From Rickettsiales bacterium (GTDB lineage: Bacteria > Pseudomonadota > Alphaproteobacteria > Rickettsiales > UBA1997), in the NCBI GenBank assembly GCA_035470525.1, contig DATIQT010000067.1, forward strand, positions 1-50,521: 50,521 nt of DNA, written 5' to 3'. The stretch's first letter is position 1. The number at the start of each line of letters is the position of its first letter. A program made the position numbers and the translations under genes. Below are positions 6,192-14,407 of the stretch, piece by piece. The notes under the pieces are model-generated. The model was not told the origin of the DNA, searched no databases, and saw only the letters and a list, made by a program, of their open reading frames with translations.

Positions 6192-6554
6192 TTAACATAT
6201 TTTTAATTCCTCTTCCTCTGGTAAAATATTGAGTAATATTTTTAATGCTTTTCTGCTCTCAAAAATAGAGCCATCACCAACTTTTAAACCAACCAATATA
6301 CAGCCATGAGTATCTTTTGTATAATTCCCTGCATGTATTAATATATTTGTCCTATTAACCACATTGTTAATAGCAAAACATTCTTTAAATTTTGGACTGT
6401 AATGTTTTCTGATTTTGTAAATCCCTTCTGGTATACAAGAAATATTTGTTTGGTTATCTTTGTAAGGCAATTCTAATGTATAAAATACCTTATCTTCAAA
6501 AACTAATTTTCCAATTGTGAAATTATCATTATAAACTCTTTTTATTGTTAACAT
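6192..6554 (-). CDS. DUF5675-like small protein (phage-associated family)
   Basis: 120 aa. The pattern TIGKL....F.TLE.P...N....SCIPEGIY.....SPKF......NV..R..ILIH.GN...DT.GCILVG recalls DUF5675. Confidence 0.45.
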   Translation of the reverse strand: MLTIKRVYNDNFTIGKLVFEDKVFYTLELPYKDNQTNISCIPEGIYKIRKHYSPKFKECFAINNVVNRTNILIHAGNYTKDTHGCILVGLKVGDGSIFESRKALKILLNILPEEEELKIC

Positions 6555-7507: not shown

Positions 7508-7700
7508 AATTTTTTCAAATTGTTAACATTGGCACTTAGGCTAACAATTTTTTTATAAAAGTCAATTTTATGATTATTGCTTTTGCAATTAATATTATTT
7601 GTTATTCCTATAAATAATAAAATTTAACATTAGATTATAGAACTTGAAATATTAAAAAATATATATAAGAATATTAGTGAAATAAATTTAATATTTGTTA

Positions 7701-8582
7701 ATGGGTTCAAAAGATTATAATAGTTTTCAAAAAATTCTTACAAAATTATATGGTTTTTGGGATAATTTTGGTTGTGTATTAATACCACCATCTCAAACTG
7801 AAATATCATCACCATTGTTTCACCCAACAACTTTCTTTGGAATGATTGAGGATAATAATATTGATACAATGTATTTCCAACCACATGTCGCTTCAAAAGA
7901 ATTTGATAATGATAAATTTGGCATTCAAAATTATACTTTTTTGAAGTTTCAAGTAGTTCTAAAATCAAAAGTATTAAATCCACAACAGTTATTCTTAAAT
8001 AGTTTGGAATATATTGGTTTAAATCTAAAAGATAATGATATAAGATTTATTAATGAGAATTATGAAAATTTTATTTTCAGATTTAACGCTTTCGGTTATA
8101 GAATTTTATTTAATAATGTTTCAATAGCAAAATTACATTATGTTCAAAATATAGGATATCATGATTTTACTTGTGTCCCTACAATAATAACATTTGATTT
8201 AGATAAAATTTTAACAATTTTACAAAACAATAATAATTTATGGGATATATCTTGGAATGGTTCAAAAGAAAAAGATGAAATTTTGTATTCAGATATTATG
8301 TATAAATCAGAACTTGAAAATCATGAATTTATAAAAGACTCAACAACAAATGAAATTATCTTAAAACAATTAATTAACTTTAAAGATATAGCTATCAAAT
8401 TATTAGATAAAAAAATTATAATCCCAGCATATATAAATATTTTAAAAGCAAAGTATTGTTTAGATATTCTGTGTTTGAGGGATTATATTATGTATGATGC
8501 CAAATTGGATTATAGTAAATCTTTGAGAGAATTAGTAGATTTATGTTGCGAGAATTATTTACATGAGGGAACTAATGAGTAA
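7701..8582 (+). CDS. glyQ: Glycine--tRNA ligase alpha subunit homologue. It is colinear with GlyQ but the catalytic motifs are degenerate.
   Basis: FQKILTKLYGFWDNFGC, FHPTTF, YFQP, KFQVV, DIRFI.EN.EN and PAY.NILKA align with E. coli GlyQ at the same spacing. It overlaps glyS. See the findings for the lost motifs. Confidence 0.65.
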   Translation: MGSKDYNSFQKILTKLYGFWDNFGCVLIPPSQTEISSPLFHPTTFFGMIEDNNIDTMYFQPHVASKEFDNDKFGIQNYTFLKFQVVLKSKVLNPQQLFLNSLEYIGLNLKDNDIRFINENYENFIFRFNAFGYRILFNNVSIAKLHYVQNIGYHDFTCVPTIITFDLDKILTILQNNNNLWDISWNGSKEKDEILYSDIMYKSELENHEFIKDSTTNEIILKQLINFKDIAIKLLDKKIIIPAYINILKAKYCLDILCLRDYIMYDAKLDYSKSLRELVDLCCENYLHEGTNE

Positions 8583-10710
8583 TTTATTTATAGAATTATA
8601 TTCAGAGGAAATACCATACTATTTTTTTGATAAAATAAAACCCGATATAAAAAAAATTATTACAGAACATTTTTTAGAATTAGGTTTAATAGAAAAAAAT
8701 AATATAAATTCAATTTCTGTATATACTACACCTTGTAGAATTATAATATATTGCGATAAGCTTTTAACAAATATAAATATTAAATATAGAGAAATTTGTG
8801 GTCCTAAAGTTAAAGCTACTACTGAAGAAAAGAAAGGATTTTTATCAGCATATAATTTAAAGTCTATTGACGAGTTAGTTGAAAAAGATGGAAATTTAGT
8901 TCTAATTCAAGAAAATTTACAAATAAAAGTTAAAGATGTTTTAGAAAAAAATATGGAAAATATATTGTCATCTATTGCTTCTTCATTCCCGCAAAATATC
9001 AGTTGGATAAATTCAATGAATACTAGATGGATTAGTCCATTGAGAAATATTTTGTGTTTATTTGATAATGATATTTTAAAGTTCAATTTTTGTGATTTAA
9101 CAAGTAACAATCACACTTACGGTCATAAAATATTAATTGGCTTAGATAAAAAAGTAAAAATCGAAAGTTTTGATGATTATCAAATAAAAATGAAAGACAA
9201 TTTTGTAATTTTCAACCAAAACGAAAGAGAGAAGATTATAGTAGATAAAATATTAAAAATAGAAGACGAATTGAAATTAAACATATACAACGATGATAAT
9301 TTCACAAAAAATCTAGTAAAAAAAATAGTAGACACAATGGAATATCCAGATGTTTTCTATGTAAAATTCAACAAAGAATTTTTAAAACTACCGGAAATGA
9401 TAATAACAACAGCTATTTGTAATGATTATAATTGCTTTTGTTTAAAAGATAATATTCAAAATACTATTTCTAATAAAATTATATCTTTTACTAACACAAA
9501 AATAAATGAAAATATAGTTAAAGAATTAGAAAGTGCAATCGATAAAAAATTATCTTTAATAAACTCAAAATTAGCAGAATATTTATCAGAAAGCCTTGAA
9601 GTTAAAATAAATAAATTAAAACAATTACCTTATCATAAAGGTTTTGGTTCAGTGTTTAACAAAATGGAGAGATTGACTGAGTTATCAAAATTCATATGTT
9701 TATGGATACCTCATTGTGATTTGCTTAATACTGAAGAAGCTGCTAAATTATGTAAAATAGACTGCACAACAACATTAACAAAAGACAATCCGATATTAAA
9801 AGGTTATTTATCAGCATATTATGCCGAAGTAAATTCTTACCCAAAAGTCCTTTGTGACGGTATTAAACAATACTATGAACCTAGAAATTTAAAAGATCCA
9901 ATACCATCAACAGACATAGGAAAAATTATTTCTTTAGCAGGACGAATTGATAACATAACAAAATTGTTTATTACAAATGAACAATCAACAAGTTCAAAAG
10001 ACCCTTACGGAATAAGAAAAAACATGGCTTCTGTTATCAAAATATTAGCTGAAGGAGAAATTTCGATACCATTCCAAGTTTTAGTACATAAATCAATAAG
10101 TTTATTCAAAACTGGAATTTACAAAAACAATAACGAATCAAAAATCAGTATAAAACAAAAAATAAACAAAATTAAAGAAGATATCACAAATTTATGCAGA
10201 GACAGATTTTTTAGTTTTTTAAAAGATTGTGGATACGATGAAAAAATAATTGCATTAGTATTTGACAAAAAAAACAAACAAAATAAACCAGCTTTAAATG
10301 TTTATAATATATACAAAAAGATTGTCATAGTTGACAATTATGCAAAAGAAAATCCAGAAAAAATGGTTTTAATAAAAAATAGCTATAAAAGAATAAAAAA
10401 TATATTAGCTGATTCAAAAATTGAAAAAAAGATACCTTTATTTACAAAAATAATACGAAAATTATCTAAAAAGACCAGAAATGACCACATACTAATAACA
10501 AAAATCAGTGATTTAAGAATTGATATGAAAAGAGAAATTAAGCTACATAATTATAGTTTATGTTTAGATTTATTGTATGAATTTTCTAATGTTTTAAGCA
10601 GATATTTTGAAACAAATATAATCATGTCAAAAAATATAGCCGAAAAAAATGCTAAATTATATTTGATGTATAAAACTAAAAATATTTACGAAAGTTTATT
10701 ATATTTTTAA
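8575..10710 (+). CDS. glyS: Glycine--tRNA ligase beta subunit homologue (divergent)
   Basis: The N-terminus MSNLFIELYSEEIP matches the canonical ...E.GTEELP. VYTTPCRI matches TPRRL, YGHK matches RGHRF, and KDPYGIRK matches DPFALRR. It has an 8-nt overlap with the glyQ stop. An alternative ATG lies at 8563. Confidence 0.65.
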   Translation: MSNLFIELYSEEIPYYFFDKIKPDIKKIITEHFLELGLIEKNNINSISVYTTPCRIIIYCDKLLTNINIKYREICGPKVKATTEEKKGFLSAYNLKSIDELVEKDGNLVLIQENLQIKVKDVLEKNMENILSSIASSFPQNISWINSMNTRWISPLRNILCLFDNDILKFNFCDLTSNNHTYGHKILIGLDKKVKIESFDDYQIKMKDNFVIFNQNEREKIIVDKILKIEDELKLNIYNDDNFTKNLVKKIVDTMEYPDVFYVKFNKEFLKLPEMIITTAICNDYNCFCLKDNIQNTISNKIISFTNTKINENIVKELESAIDKKLSLINSKLAEYLSESLEVKINKLKQLPYHKGFGSVFNKMERLTELSKFICLWIPHCDLLNTEEAAKLCKIDCTTTLTKDNPILKGYLSAYYAEVNSYPKVLCDGIKQYYEPRNLKDPIPSTDIGKIISLAGRIDNITKLFITNEQSTSSKDPYGIRKNMASVIKILAEGEISIPFQVLVHKSISLFKTGIYKNNNESKISIKQKINKIKEDITNLCRDRFFSFLKDCGYDEKIIALVFDKKNKQNKPALNVYNIYKKIVIVDNYAKENPEKMVLIKNSYKRIKNILADSKIEKKIPLFTKIIRKLSKKTRNDHILITKISDLRIDMKREIKLHNYSLCLDLLYEFSNVLSRYFETNIIMSKNIAEKNAKLYLMYKTKNIYESLLYF

Positions 10711-10717
10711 TAAAAAA

Positions 10718-10993
10718 ATGCAAAACATAAAGAATTACAAATTTATAGAAGAATTAAAATTACTACCTTTTGTGAAGGAAGTTTGGCTTTACGGTTCAAG
10801 AGCAAGAGGCTATAATGAAGAAAAATCAGACATAGACTTAGCAATTATTTGCAATGAGAATTATGATTCGAGCAAAATTACAGAAATAATTGAAAATGCA
10901 GACACTTTATTAGAAATTGATTATATTGATTTTAATAAATTAAAAGATAATAAATTTAAAGAAAGAGTAAGAAAAGAAAAAGTAGTTTTATGA
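10718..10993 (+). CDS. mntA: MntA-type minimal nucleotidyltransferase (type VII antitoxin)
   Basis: NTase motif LYGSRARG...SDIDLAI. The ORF has 91 aa and a 4-nt ATGA overlap with the next ORF. Confidence 0.7.
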   Translation: MQNIKNYKFIEELKLLPFVKEVWLYGSRARGYNEEKSDIDLAIICNENYDSSKITEIIENADTLLEIDYIDFNKLKDNKFKERVRKEKVVL

Positions 10994-11394
10994 ATCAAAA
11001 AATTTTAGACAAATTTAAAAATCTAACTAAAGCTTTTGAAAAATTTTCAGAAATTGTAAGTGCTGAAGTTGAAGATGAAATAATCAAAAGAGATGCTTGC
11101 ATTCAACGATTTGAATTTACAATAGAATTATTTTGGAAATTCTTAAAATTATATATGATTGAAAATGGGGAAAAAGAAATTAATTTTCCAAGAGAAGTAT
11201 TACAAAAAGCTTACAAATACAATTTAATAAACAATGAAGAAATCTGGTTAAACATGTTAACAGATAAAAATAGAACTTCTAACATTTACGATGAAGAAGA
11301 AATTGAAAAAATTTATAGCAATATAAGAAATAACTATTATAATGAGATGAAAGCTTGCTATAATTTGTTAAAAGAAAGAGTAAAAAGTGATTAA
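10990..11394 (+). CDS. hepT: HepT-like / HI0074-family nucleotidyltransferase substrate-binding protein (toxin partner)
   Basis: 134-aa helical protein with the RDA.IQRFEFT.EL.WK.LK pattern typical of the HI0074 family. It is translationally coupled to mntA. Confidence 0.6.
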   Translation: MNQKILDKFKNLTKAFEKFSEIVSAEVEDEIIKRDACIQRFEFTIELFWKFLKLYMIENGEKEINFPREVLQKAYKYNLINNEEIWLNMLTDKNRTSNIYDEEEIEKIYSNIRNNYYNEMKACYNLLKERVKSD

Positions 11395-11470: not shown

Positions 11471-14407
11471 ATGACTAAATTAAATAAAAAATATATCTTC
11501 GCAGAAAGCGAAAAAAAGTGGCAAGAATATTGGCAAGAAGCTAAAATTTTTCAATTCAATTGGAATGACACAAAAAGAGAAAATATCTATTCAATAGATA
11601 CACCACCGCCTCATGTTTCTGGCGCATTGCATATGGGACACATTTTTGGTTATTCTCAAATGGATACAATCGCAAGATTTCAAAGAATGTCAGGCAAAAA
11701 TGTATTTTATCCAGTTGGTTTTGATGACAATGGTCTTCCATCAGAAAGATATGTTGAAAAAAAGCTTAACATAAAAAGCAAATCAATAGACAGACAAGAG
11801 TTCGTTAAAATTTGTGATAAAGAAATTCAAGATGCTGAACAATTTATGAAAGAAGAATTTATAAAAATGAATTATTCATTTGATTTTGATGAAGCATACA
11901 GAACAATATCTCCAACAGCAAGAAAAGTTTCTCAAATGTCATTTATTGATTTATGCAATAAAAATAAAGTTTATAGAAAAGAAGAGCCGATAATTTGGGA
12001 CGTTGTGGATCAGACAGCTTTAGCACAAACAGAAGCTGAAGATGCAGAGAAAGAAAGCCAGATGAATTATTTGAAGTTTGAATTGACTGACGGAAAAACA
12101 AGAGAGCAATTAGAAATAATGACCACCCGTCCAGAACTTCTCCCAGCTTGTGTTGCTATCTTCACTCACCCAGACAACAAAGACAAATACTTAGGCAAGA
12201 AAGCTATTACTCCGTTAGGTGTTGAAGTTCCTATTCTATTTGATGAAACTGTAGACAAAGAAAAAGGAACTGGTGTAATGATGTGTTGTACTTTTGGTGA
12301 CAATGCAGACGTTGAAAAATATAAAAAATATAATCTTCCTTTGAAAATTATAATTAATGAAAAAGGTTGTTTGTATTTTGATAATGTTCCTGAAATTGAT
12401 GAAAAATATAAATCAGAATTGAATGGTTTATTTACGACTAAAGCTAGAGAAAAAATATTGGAAATTCTCAATGAAGAAGGAAAAATCACTAGAGAGCCTG
12501 AAAAAATTATTCATGCAGTAAAAGTTGGTGAAAGGTCAAAAAGCCCTCTTGAAATTCTTGTTAAAAGTCAGTGGAACATTAATGTTCTTGATATAAAAGA
12601 TGAATTACATAAAAAAGCTGATGAAGTGCAATGGCACCCAGAATGGATGAAAGGTAGAATACACAGCTGGATTGATGGTTTAAGTTGGAACTGGACTATT
12701 TCAAGACAAAGATTTTTCGGTGTCCCAGTGCCATGTTGGTATTCTAAAAAAGATGGAAGTGTAATTTTACCATCTATGGAACAATTACCAGTAGACCCTA
12801 CAGTTGATTTACCTAAAGGTTATACTAAAGATGAAGTAATTGGCGAAACTGACGTTTTTGATACTTGGATGACTTCATCTGTAAGTCCACAATTATCAAC
12901 TCAATCAATCACTGAAGAATTGACTTGCGATAAAGAAAGAGCTAAAACTTTAAATTTACCTTTTGATTTGAGAACACAAGGACATGATATTATTAGAACT
13001 TGGGCTTTCTGTACTTTAACAAAAGCTTATTTACATCAAAATATAATTCCTTGGAAAAATATTTTCGTTAATGGTTTCTGCTTGGCTAGCGATGGAACAA
13101 AAATGTCAAAGTCAAAGGGAAATGGTGTTGATCCAGTTAAAACAATAAATGAATTTGGTGCAGATGCTGTTAGATATTGGGCTTTAAGTTCTCAATTAGG
13201 AACAGATACAAACTATTCAATAGATATGATTAAAATGGGACAGAAATTAATCACAAAATTGTTTAATAGTGCGAAGTTTGCGGAAATGATGTTTGATAAT
13301 TTGGATTCTATGACTCCCCCTTCCACCTTGAGGGGAAGGGGTCAGGGGTTAGGGGTAGAACATCTTTACTCCGAAAAAACTCTTGAGCAAGCTAAAAAAT
13401 TAAGACAAGAGTCAAATTTACCAGAAAAAATTTTGTGGGAATTTTTAAGAAATAATCAATTAAATGGATTAAAATTTAAAAGACAACAACCTATTGATAA
13501 ATATATTGTTGATTTCGCTTGTTTAAGTGAAAATGTTATTATTGAGATTGATGGAAAGGTTCATGAGATTTTTAATAAAGAAAAAGATGAATTAAGAGAA
13601 GAAGCTTTAAGAAAACTAGGTTATAGAATAATTAGATTTAAAGCTAATGAAGTAGTTGATGATACTTTTGGAGTATTAGATAAAATTAGTGAGTTTGTAA
13701 ATAAACCCCTAACCCCTACCCCTTCCCCTCAAGGGGGAAGGGGGAGTAATCTCTCAAATGCTCAACAAGACATTTCAAATGGTTTAATTTTTGAAACAAT
13801 TGACAAATGGCTAATTTCAAGAATTTATTCAACAATTACACAAGCTACAAAATCGCTTGAAAATTATGAATACGGAAAAGCACTTGAAGTTATAGACAGT
13901 TTCTTCTGGAATGATTTTTGTGATAACTATTTGGAAATAGTAAAGGTTAGATGTTATGGTGCAAATGGTACAAAATATCAAGGCATTGAACTATCAAAAG
14001 AAGAAAAAGAAAAAATTGATAGAGAGCAACAAAGCGCAATTAGAACAATTTATTATGTATTCAATGCAATATTGAAATTATACTCTCCATTTACACCTGC
14101 AATTTGTGATGAAATATATTCATGTGTATATGAAAATGAGTTTAATCAAACTAAATCAGTTTCTTCAAGAGGAAATTGGGCAAAATCTATAGATTTTGTT
14201 GAAAACAAAGAAATTGATGAAATTGGAAAAGTTATTTTGAATACAATAACAAATGTTAGAAAAGAAAAATCTGAAAAGAATATTTCAATAAAAGAATTAA
14301 TTGATGAAGTTAAAATCGAAAGTCCTTTGAATGAGAAAATTTCAAAAGACATTGGTTTGATTGAAGATTTAAAAAATGTGTGTAATGCTAAAAAAATAAG
14401 GTTTTAA
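11471..14407 (+). CDS. valS: Valine--tRNA ligase carrying an in-frame insertion of about 144 aa
   Basis: HIGH-type motif PPPHVSGALHMGH and KMSKS (TKMSKSKGNG). An anticodon-binding helical domain follows the insert (DKWLISR...FCDNYLE). Confidence 0.88.
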   Translation: MTKLNKKYIFAESEKKWQEYWQEAKIFQFNWNDTKRENIYSIDTPPPHVSGALHMGHIFGYSQMDTIARFQRMSGKNVFYPVGFDDNGLPSERYVEKKLNIKSKSIDRQEFVKICDKEIQDAEQFMKEEFIKMNYSFDFDEAYRTISPTARKVSQMSFIDLCNKNKVYRKEEPIIWDVVDQTALAQTEAEDAEKESQMNYLKFELTDGKTREQLEIMTTRPELLPACVAIFTHPDNKDKYLGKKAITPLGVEVPILFDETVDKEKGTGVMMCCTFGDNADVEKYKKYNLPLKIIINEKGCLYFDNVPEIDEKYKSELNGLFTTKAREKILEILNEEGKITREPEKIIHAVKVGERSKSPLEILVKSQWNINVLDIKDELHKKADEVQWHPEWMKGRIHSWIDGLSWNWTISRQRFFGVPVPCWYSKKDGSVILPSMEQLPVDPTVDLPKGYTKDEVIGETDVFDTWMTSSVSPQLSTQSITEELTCDKERAKTLNLPFDLRTQGHDIIRTWAFCTLTKAYLHQNIIPWKNIFVNGFCLASDGTKMSKSKGNGVDPVKTINEFGADAVRYWALSSQLGTDTNYSIDMIKMGQKLITKLFNSAKFAEMMFDNLDSMTPPSTLRGRGQGLGVEHLYSEKTLEQAKKLRQESNLPEKILWEFLRNNQLNGLKFKRQQPIDKYIVDFACLSENVIIEIDGKVHEIFNKEKDELREEALRKLGYRIIRFKANEVVDDTFGVLDKISEFVNKPLTPTPSPQGGRGSNLSNAQQDISNGLIFETIDKWLISRIYSTITQATKSLENYEYGKALEVIDSFFWNDFCDNYLEIVKVRCYGANGTKYQGIELSKEEKEKIDREQQSAIRTIYYVFNAILKLYSPFTPAICDEIYSCVYENEFNQTKSVSSRGNWAKSIDFVENKEIDEIGKVILNTITNVRKEKSEKNISIKELIDEVKIESPLNEKISKDIGLIEDLKNVCNAKKIRF
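13314..13746 (+). mobile_element. DUF559 (Vsr-like endonuclease) element with 42-43 bp GC-rich terminal inverted repeats, inserted in frame in valS
   Basis: The left TIR is 13314-13356 (ctcccccttccaccttgaggggaaggggtcaggggttaggggt). The right TIR, 13705-13746, is its reverse complement with 1 mismatch and 1 indel. The interior encodes AKKLRQESNLPEKILWEFLR...GLKFKRQQPIDKYIVDFAC...IIEIDG..H....D..R...L...GY.IIRF.ANEV, the DUF559 signature. Confidence 0.8.

Follow-up and report, generated by a model that had tools for sequence, protein, structure and literature searches.

A glyQ-glyS operon of uncultured Rickettsiales-type bacteria: probably a catalytically dead, functionally replaced glycyl-tRNA synthetase retained as a tRNA(Gly)-binding complex

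The DNA analysed here (the window) is a stretch of 50,521 nucleotides from a Rickettsiales bacterium, and on its forward strand, to which all coordinates below refer, lies a two-gene operon automatically annotated as 'glycine--tRNA ligase subunit alpha/beta'. The first gene, glyQ (7701..8582), encodes 293 amino acids from the ATG at 7701, with an alternative TTG start at 7695; the second, glyS (8563..10710), encodes 715 amino acids from the ATG at 8563, although the ATG at 8575, which gives the 711 amino acids of the database gene call and overlaps the glyQ stop codon (8580-8582) by 8 nt, is the likelier start. GlyQ aligns over its full length to Pfam PF02091 (173 bits against a gathering threshold of 27; profile positions 1-275 of 278) and falls far below the equivalog cut-offs (168.2 versus 369 for NF006827; 153.9 versus 361 for TIGR00388). 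GlyS exceeds the TIGR00211 cut-off (361.4 versus 300, residues 7-712), scores 326 bits against PF02092 and contains all five beta-subunit domains, the match to DALR_1 being weak. A promoter and terminator scan of the AT-rich window was uninformative (36 hits versus 37.6 expected), and there is no tRNA-Gly gene in the window or in any related locus retrieved.

An earlier note, made from the sequence alone, had described glyQ as full-length and colinear with E. coli GlyQ. Alignment with HMMER to solved GlyQ structures and with MAFFT gave the same register as had been set by eye, and the four peptide stretches quoted at that time are all present in the translation. Counted from the ATG at 7701, residue numbers in the window GlyQ equal E. 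coli numbers across the catalytic core (L39, A64, Y121, I162 and K169). The AF2 model of the protein has a pLDDT of 85.7, with its lowest confidence in the motif-2 loop, and in Foldseek it reaches TM-scores of 0.88-0.91 to 3RF1, 1J5W, 5F5W and 7EIV at 23-28% identity; by this model, the fold of a GlyRS alpha subunit is intact.

The catalytic site within that fold is not conserved, as the earlier note had also recognised. A set of 21 sites that contact ATP, Mg, glycine or tRNA shows no variation in canonical GlyQ (20-21 sequences); in the window 16 of these are replaced, and only E34, Q84, E122 and Y147/Q149 (A. aeolicus Y141/Q143) are kept. In the degenerate class II motif 2 (YFQPHVASKEFDNDKFGIQNYTFLKFQVV; 7872..7958), R63 has become V, R64 A, D67 E, R76 Q and Q82 K, with Q84 retained (E. 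coli numbering); the amino-acid loop and central strands (INENYENFIFRFNAFGYRILFNNVSIAKLHYVQNI; 8049..8153) show W121 to Y, T125 to I, E134 to R, E141 to S and Q150 to N; and in motif 3 (TIITFDLDKILTILQ; 8181..8225) E162 is replaced by I and R169 by K. The alignments further place an L39 codon (7815..7817) at the invariant glycine-binding T39, where EVGAGT reads EISSPL. The glycine pocket (T39, Q82, Q84, W121, E162) is thus L39, K82, Q84, Y121 and I162, four of five residues being lost, and the Mg ligands (D67, E134, E141) are E67, R134 and S141, a conservative change at the aspartate and a replacement of both glutamates.

These residues have been assigned functions in canonical enzymes. T39 (T33) has a glycine-binding role, E134 and E141 are Mg ligands, W121 makes a cation-pi contact to glycine (PMC4938167, PMC8464048), and E162 is the sole glycine ligand common to all GlyRS types (PMC4938167). 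In E. coli, R64A reduces glycine activation ~985-fold and abolishes aminoacylation, while R76A, D67A and R169A reduce activation ~47-, ~109- and ~123-fold, respectively (PMC8464048). The two ATP-binding arginines, R64 and R169, are arginine in all 20-21 canonical sequences, and they are A64 and K169 in the window; among the window's relatives the equivalent of R64 is A, L, Y or G and that of R169 is K or N.

The earlier note had considered GlyS aberrant "to a lesser extent", an assessment that is too mild, for the protein is not much less divergent than GlyQ, and its nearest canonical relatives are only 27% identical. In its B3 domain, the segment ELESAIDKKLSLINSK (9523..9570) stands in place of GNEkVvRpRLxDAxFF, which covers the ATP site (R326) in E. 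coli, where R326A lowers activation ~15-fold (PMC8464048). Across the clade R324 is replaced by N or D, D329 by F, Y or L, and F332 by S, L or N, so that D329 and F332 are lost throughout; R159, on which aminoacylation depends in E. coli, is replaced by S or A.

The residues with which the beta subunit reads tRNA are largely retained. Loop H18-19 and the start of helix H19 in the HD domain (SSKDPYGIRK; 9991..10020), an element that reads acceptor-stem pairs 1-4 (PMC9908026), keep D476 in 23/24 clade sequences, P477 in 21/24 and R481 in 24/24, with a uniform change of R482 to K (24/24). The anticodon-binding-domain motif KRIKN (10390..10401) is likewise kept, its R610 and N613 corresponding to E. 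coli R585, which reads C36, and N588, which contacts A37 (PMC9908026); the clade holds R585 in 24/24 and N588 in 16/24 sequences, and F652 of the C35 pocket (10606-10608) is kept in 19/24. W150, R367 and Y434 (each 24/24) and K394 (23/24) are further retained, and the HD-domain cavity residues K364, R367, K394, Y434 and D459 are still conserved. On the alpha subunit, the tRNA-docking residues are R277 in 24/24 sequences, K or R at R269, and D for N256 in 24/24. These conserved residues suggest that the complex may still bind tRNA-Gly without charging it.

The old active site also has features of its own. The clade carries specific conserved motifs in and around it (QTEISSPLFHP, FLKFQV, ENFIFR, YDLDKIL and LKAKYCLD), and conserved new basic residues, K82, R127 and K169 in window numbering, line the former pocket (Q82 to K in 22/24 sequences; R169 to K in 21/24). 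Judged from the sequences, these residues could support some other chemistry, and one could envision the remodelled complex as a new enzyme in which a pocket with K82, R127, K169, D255 and a hydrophobic floor carries out another reaction on tRNA-Gly or another acceptor, such as deacylation or editing, the transfer of an acyl group other than glycyl, or the activation of a substrate without an amino group, with GlyS still delivering the tRNA. The retained tRNA-docking residues would fit such a role. However, the positions needed for the nucleotide phosphate and Mg (the equivalents of R64, E134, E141 and E162) vary within the clade; those of E134, E141 and E162 have entropies above 2 bits, with 8, 6 and 6 states, respectively. 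As a set, moreover, the former functional sites are not more conserved than the remaining core (0.98 versus 1.16 bits per site; p = 0.43), model confidence is lowest in the motif-2 loop, and no partner gene is conserved beside the operon in the related loci compared. We thus regard a new enzyme as unlikely. A retooled ligand pocket had been our main reading on the strength of the clade-specific motifs; it was dropped after the per-site table and the entropy test, by which the former ATP, Mg and glycine positions appear to drift freely within the clade.

Could the divergence simply reflect AT bias or generally fast evolution? The earlier note had regarded the neighbouring genes as conventional, and this is borne out: KdsA (376 versus 242), ValS (937 versus 738), PyrG (820 versus 308) and GatB (732 versus 628) all pass their cut-offs, and KdsA is 95% identical where GlyQ is 71%. 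These values rule out both causes; with the neighbouring housekeeping genes above their cut-offs, the divergence is particular to glyQS and much greater than chance would give. Other synthetase oddities were seen in the same clade, namely an IleRS in two pieces and a ValRS with an insertion.

Intact copies of this aberrant pair occur in at least 10 related loci, which derive from "Rickettsiales bacterium" MAGs and from metagenomes. Together they form a monophyletic clade (100/100), set off by a branch of ~5 substitutions per site, and 1.84 billion representative proteins yielded no intermediates between the canonical and aberrant forms; the phylogeny thus indicates a single origin. All glyQ (11/11) and glyS (10/10) ORFs examined are intact, at ~0.9 and 2.1 kb, in lineages whose synonymous sites are saturated. 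By the NG86 method, the values of which are approximate with dS near saturation, dN/dS is 0.12-0.25 for glyQ and 0.11-0.17 for glyS, as compared to 0.045 for kdsA and 0.05-0.07 for alpha2-type glyRS. At ~0.1-0.25, these estimates indicate that both genes are under purifying selection.

Such values bear directly on one half of the earlier suggestion that the pair is a functionally replaced relic. Under that hypothesis the operon would be without function and slowly decaying, not yet disrupted or deleted since the arrival of an alpha2-type GlyRS. The GlyQ and GlyS proteins do change at 3-6 times the rate of KdsA or the alpha2 GlyRS when the same pairs of genomes are compared, the catalytic sites drift, and none of the RNA-seq runs searched for the window stretch contains it, all of which would be expected of a relic. 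However, not one of the 21 ORFs is disrupted, dN/dS is well below the ~1 of a decaying gene, the start-stop overlap of the two genes is conserved among relatives, and the clade motifs and tRNA-recognition residues are invariant or nearly so in 24 sequences whose identity reaches down to 42%. Small, AT-rich genomes like these, moreover, normally lose useless DNA. A relic is therefore improbable; it is the "replaced" half of the suggestion that stood.

That half depends on a second GlyRS. In the closest relative, locus L011, a gene for an alpha2-type GlyRS is found 137 nt upstream of the aberrant glyQ, encoded on the other strand. Its product scores 590 bits against NF003211 (cut-off 312) and has all class II motifs, among them an intact motif 2 (FRNEITPK...FRVREFEQME) and an intact motif 3 (EPSAGLDRG). 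Two relatives, MAGs GCA_028688645.1 and GCA_944391025.1, contain both an alpha2 GlyRS and the aberrant operon; physical linkage is seen in L011, co-occurrence in the two MAGs rests on binning, and the deepest subclade (L008-L010) lies outside this set of three. A tblastn search with an approximate T. thermophilus alpha2 GlyRS query gave no match in the window or in the first ten loci. In the window's source metagenome (run X1, which contains the window at 100%), a single contig bears a clade-type alpha2 glyRS without indels across the gene, at a depth of 13.2 as compared to 11.5 for the glyQS contig. By this matching depth and by its presence in relatives, an alpha2 GlyRS can be provisionally assigned to the window's organism as well, and a conventional single-gene enzyme of this type very probably does the actual work of glycylation in the clade. 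Three more distant alpha2 GlyRS proteins (P0080, P0069 and P0081) come from assemblies outside the glyQS set.

The earlier note had offered as its other possibility that the pair is an extreme outlier enzyme, that is, a GlyRS whose re-invented catalytic residues still activate glycine and charge tRNA-Gly, whether as the sole GlyRS or a redundant one. Intact, colinear genes under purifying selection would be in keeping with this, as would the retention of E34, Q84, Y147 and Q149 and the lysine at the motif-3 arginine. However, in E. coli R64A by itself is enough to abolish aminoacylation, and the window carries its equivalent naturally; gone as well are the two Mg glutamates, all but one of the five glycine ligands and the R326 motif of GlyS, at positions that vary within the clade; and a far slower-evolving, conventional alpha2 GlyRS is linked to the operon or co-occurs with it. 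The sequence evidence thus argues against glycine activation and tRNA-Gly charging by this pair, and an active outlier is improbable.

We therefore favor, with a probability of about 0.7, the reading that the pair is an (alpha-beta)2 GlyRS which has lost catalysis, been replaced in its function and been retained as a tRNA(Gly)-binding complex. Glycylation of tRNA-Gly would have passed to a conventional alpha2-type GlyRS in the ancestor of this clade, which consists of uncultured Rickettsiales-type bacteria, after which one prolonged burst of change would have stripped the old heterotetramer of its ligands for ATP, Mg and glycine. The old pair was not deleted; its genes are intact, presumably translationally coupled, and under purifying selection. 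Its beta subunit keeps the residues that read the anticodon (C35 and C36) and acceptor stem of tRNA-Gly, its alpha subunit keeps conservative versions of those that hold the CCA end, and the complex may still assemble as an alpha2 dimer with two beta arms. An intact pair with dN/dS of ~0.1-0.25 and retained tRNA-recognition residues points to selection for something other than glycylation, and with the catalytic residues gone and an alpha2 GlyRS very probably at work, what was once the synthetase now looks like a new "pseudo-synthetase" that binds tRNA. It might act, for example, as a sensor, chaperone or sequestering factor for tRNA(Gly), or alternatively through some second function that resides in the conserved HD cavity of the beta subunit.

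Compared with the bacterial (alpha-beta)2 orphan GlyRS (E. coli 7EIV/7YSE; A. aeolicus 5F5W), the pair shares the two-gene operon, the subunit lengths, the alpha fold (TM-score ~0.9), the five-domain beta subunit, the beta residues for C35, C36 and acceptor-stem pairs 1-4, and the HD cavity. It differs in that the arginines of motifs 2 and 3, the two Mg glutamates, all but one of the five glycine-pocket residues and the R326 motif of GlyS are missing, and in a GlyQ score that is less than half the NCBIfam equivalog cut-off. Whereas canonical GlyQ is among the slowest-evolving proteins, the rate of evolution of the aberrant pair is several times that of other housekeeping genes. The alpha2 GlyRS genes of L011 and of the relatives' MAGs, by contrast, are standard members of the bacterial alpha2 type (NF003211/PRK04173; T. 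thermophilus type), which is absent from the window and is the presumed working enzyme.

With a synthetase fold, lost catalytic residues and purifying selection, the pair resembles the synthetase-derived pseudoenzymes. HisZ, a HisRS paralogue that serves as the regulatory subunit of ATP phosphoribosyltransferase, retains the class II fold without adenylation and has a non-translational role beside the true synthetase (PMC9437257). Unlike the pair described here, HisZ is the product of a duplication, no longer has an anticodon-binding domain and acts together with HisG; in the aberrant GlyQS it is the original orthologue that would have degenerated, after displacement by a GlyRS of non-homologous type, with all tRNA-binding domains kept and no evident partner enzyme. 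The HisRS-like domain of Gcn2 and SLIMP are inactive synthetase derivatives in which nucleic-acid or tRNA binding has been kept for sensing or regulation. Both differ from GlyQS in being eukaryotic and built from other synthetase families, and sensing by GlyQS is pure inference. SLIMP, the SerRS-like insect mitochondrial protein, is mentioned in PMC9437257 and PMC10817482.

As far as literature searches reach, no catalytically dead derivative of an (alpha-beta)2 GlyRS has been described. The pair documents a synthetase displacement, of an alpha2beta2 enzyme by an alpha2 enzyme, in which both partners are still present, and the annotated name of the two genes is probably wrong as a statement of function. 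A 2021 structural study took the architecture of the orphan GlyRS and its conserved HD-domain cavity as hints of cryptic extra functions (PMC8464048). In this clade, evolution appears to have taken away the chemistry of aminoacylation and, over a long period, to have kept the complex, its tRNA-reading residues and the HD cavity under selection. This opens a direct route to whatever other work the complex performs. We suggest, tentatively and at somewhat less than even odds, that the dead GlyQS is a dedicated tRNA(Gly)-binding factor with a role independent of aminoacylation, either as a sensor or buffer of uncharged tRNA-Gly or through a second, cryptic role that has long been suspected for the beta subunit of the orphan GlyRS. 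If so, the clade would represent a natural separation-of-function mutant of the (alpha-beta)2 GlyRS.

The glyQ ORF of the window (7695/7701-8582, + strand) matches the GlyRS alpha-subunit family PF02091 end to end (173 bits), and the overlapping glyS ORF (8563/8575-10710, + strand) matches the beta-subunit family PF02092 (326 bits), in a window that is AT-rich (GC 23-33%). An earlier by-eye reading held that this glyQ is full-length and colinear with that of E. coli yet has lost its catalytic motifs. Its register agrees exactly with HMMER alignments to solved GlyQ structures and with a MAFFT alignment to E. coli GlyQ (residue numbers from the ATG at 7701 equal E. coli numbers throughout the catalytic core), and the loss itself is confirmed by these alignments, by a score of 168 bits against an NCBI equivalog cut-off of 369, and by the replacement of 16 of 21 functional sites. 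In the AlphaFold2 model (pLDDT 85.7), only the motif-2 loop is poorly defined; superposing the model on experimental GlyQ structures that are 23-28% identical in sequence gives TM-scores of 0.88-0.91. In GlyS, the B3 motif GNEkVvRpRLxDAxFF, which carries R326 and folds over the ATP site, can no longer be recognised; the protein scores 361 bits against an equivalog cut-off of 300. The housekeeping neighbors are conventional, as had been stated, with KdsA (376; cut-off 242), ValS (937; 738), PyrG (820; 308), and GatB (732; 628) all above their equivalog cut-offs, as is the N-terminal IleS piece (868; 621).

Functional residues were compiled from the A. aeolicus GlyQ-adenylate structure, the E. 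coli holoenzyme and mutagenesis, and the E. coli tRNA complex (PMC4938167, PMC8464048, PMC9908026), and 21 alpha-subunit sites of 24 aberrant clade members were compared with those of 20-21 canonical GlyQs, which are invariant at all 21. In the window, the 16 replacements (counting A. aeolicus R57, although it is E. coli R63) comprise the dimer salt bridge (R63V), the motif-2 and motif-3 arginines (R64A, R169K), the Mg ligands (D67E, E134R, E141S), the gamma-phosphate contact (R76Q), the glycine pocket (T39L, Q82K, E162I, and W121Y, which also contacts A76), the CCA-end contact at C75 (T125I), a tRNA contact (Q150N), and, in A. aeolicus numbering, A31S and T140H. E34, Q84, E122, and Y147/Q149 (A. 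aeolicus Y141/Q143) are retained; T158 is T in the window and S or L in most clade members. The single E. coli mutation R64A reduces glycine activation ~985-fold and abolishes aminoacylation, and R169A, D67A, and R76A cost ~123-, ~109-, and ~47-fold in activation (PMC8464048). The former catalytic sites also drift: their mean entropy within the clade is 0.98 bits vs 1.16 bits for the rest of the core (p=0.43), and the equivalents of E134, E141, and E162 are among the most variable positions (>2 bits), as expected of a protein that has ceased to bind nucleotide, Mg, and glycine. With the R64A-equivalent present, the Mg and glycine ligands lost, and these sites drifting, the earlier suggestion of an extreme outlier enzyme, still active as a GlyRS, is less likely; so is the idea that the altered pocket has become a new kind of enzyme.

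Unlike the catalytic sites, the tRNA-contact residues are mostly kept across the clade (n=24). In the beta subunit, R585, which reads C36, is present in 24/24, F652 of the C35 pocket in 19/24, and N588 in 16/24; the acceptor-stem loop retains D476 (23/24), P477 (21/24), and R481 (24/24), with R482 uniformly K (24/24); W150 is invariant (24/24), as are R367 and Y434 of the HD cavity (24/24 each), accompanied there by K394 (23/24), D459 (22/24), and K364 (20/24). In the alpha subunit, R277 is kept in 24/24, R269 is K or R, N256 is D in 24/24, and Q150 is N in 22/24. One tRNA-binding residue of the beta subunit, R159, is lost. Neither the window nor the relatives' loci examined contain a tRNA-Gly gene. 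From these sequences we infer that GlyQ and GlyS would still assemble and bind tRNA-Gly.

Reading frames are intact in 11/11 glyQ (292-297 aa) and 10/10 glyS (711-726 aa) genes, and the overlap of glyQ stop and glyS start is conserved. NG86 dN/dS ratios, approximate because dS is near saturation, are 0.12-0.25 for glyQ and 0.11-0.17 for glyS, as compared to 0.045 for kdsA and 0.05-0.07 for alpha2 glyRS, the conventional single-gene synthetase. For one genome pair, glyQ has a dN of 0.166 and kdsA one of 0.026. Protein identity is 95% for KdsA where it is 71% for GlyQ, and 84-91% for alpha2 GlyRS where it is 55-70% for GlyQ. The glyQ-glyS pair is thus clearly under constraint, though several times more weakly than genuine housekeeping genes, reversing what is usual for GlyQ.

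In the closest relative (L011; its GlyQ shares 73% identity with that of the window), a 454-aa gene lies on the same contig, 137 nt upstream of the aberrant glyQ and read from the other strand. Domains tRNA-synt_2b and HGTP_anticodon are both present in its product, which reaches 590 bits in the alpha2 GlyRS equivalog model (cut-off 312) and retains motifs 2 and 3; orthologues at 85-93% identity are common. Co-occurrence in two MAGs rests on binning, the alpha2 gene and glyQ lying on contigs 9 and 3 of GCA_028688645.1, and the alpha2 gene and glyQS on contigs 69 and 53 of GCA_944391025.1. We also took the one public run in which the window occurs at 100%, a soil metagenome, and aligned its contigs to a JGI locus with a clade-type alpha2 GlyRS gene; a single 2.9-kb contig spans the whole gene at ~88% DNA identity with zero indels inside it, at depth 13.2, as compared to 11.5 for the window's glyQS contig. 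This makes a good, though indirect, case for an alpha2 GlyRS in the window's organism too. The earlier alternative of a relic that had been functionally replaced is thus half sustained: replacement fits the alpha2 GlyRS adjoining the operon in L011 and co-occurring in two MAGs, but a functionless relic is less likely given intact ORFs and dN/dS of 0.11-0.25. In L011 (8499-10000) alpha2 glyRS and the glyQ-glyS operon diverge from the common AT-rich 137-nt spacer, and common regulation of working enzyme and pseudo-enzyme is conceivable there; the arrangement is absent from the window, where kdsA lies upstream of glyQ.

Among 5.8 billion proteins searched, 17 GlyQ orthologues at 52-73% identity are followed by a gap down to canonical GlyQs at 29%, and GlyS shows the same gap (43-76%, next 27%). 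When one genome per GTDB species was screened, 8 species had an aberrant GlyQ, with identities as low as 42%; seven of them are MAGs that bear the label "Rickettsiales bacterium" and the eighth is labelled "uncultured Rhizobiaceae bacterium". Against 1.84 billion 50%-identity representatives, the clade profile found only two full-length clusters of aberrant type (484 and 327 bits) and no intermediates, the next match (172 bits) being canonical. In an ML tree the aberrant clade is monophyletic (100/100) and separated from canonical GlyQs by a branch of ~5 substitutions per site. Source labels are mixed: record titles (L004, CAZBNS010000001.1; L008, CAKVGI010000008.1) include an "uncultured Rhizobiaceae bacterium" MAG and a "Nepal_MoBio" sample, and the window is from a soil metagenome.

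The window's valS (11471-14407) has an in-frame insert of ~140 aa at 13314-13746, with DUF559/Vsr-like sequence (…LRQESNLPEKILWEFLRNN…RFKANEV…) flanked by Gly/Pro-rich stretches, and the ValS HMM match falls into two parts; the window's 800-aa IleS ORF (29185-31590, - strand) matches only positions 3-790 of 861 in TIGR00392; with the aberrant GlyQS, this is an unusual concentration of synthetase oddities in the clade. Between glyS and valS (10718-11394, + strand) lie nucleotidyltransferase (91 aa) and HEPN-like (134 aa) ORFs overlapping by 4 nt; in the relative L012, valS directly follows glyS, so these two ORFs appear to have been inserted locally. A small ORF (6192-6554, - strand) belongs with 120-127-aa ORFs, Peptidase_M15_4-like in relatives, that recur near glyQ in several loci (upstream in L003 and L012) within an otherwise reshuffled neighborhood. 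Ankyrin-repeat proteins are encoded near GlyRS genes in L011 (3785-5287) and downstream of alpha2 glyRS in two more distant loci (L077, L081), where a DUF5662 gene always follows alpha2 glyRS; the ankyrin-repeat genes suggest a lifestyle associated with eukaryotes.

Among known systems, the nearest parallels are synthetase-derived pseudoenzymes such as HisZ, the Gcn2 domain that resembles HisRS, and SLIMP. A 2022 review of synthetase paralogues has no GlyQS-derived entry (PMC9437257), and our literature searches found no published description of a catalytically dead GlyQS derivative. Loss of the catalytic residues and retention of both genes under selection are shown. The best-supported reading of the whole is that an alpha2 GlyRS took over from the (alpha-beta)2 enzyme in the clade ancestor, that the old enzyme lost its chemistry in one burst, and that purifying selection has maintained the glyQ-glyS complex since then, the most likely reason being that it can still bind tRNA-Gly.
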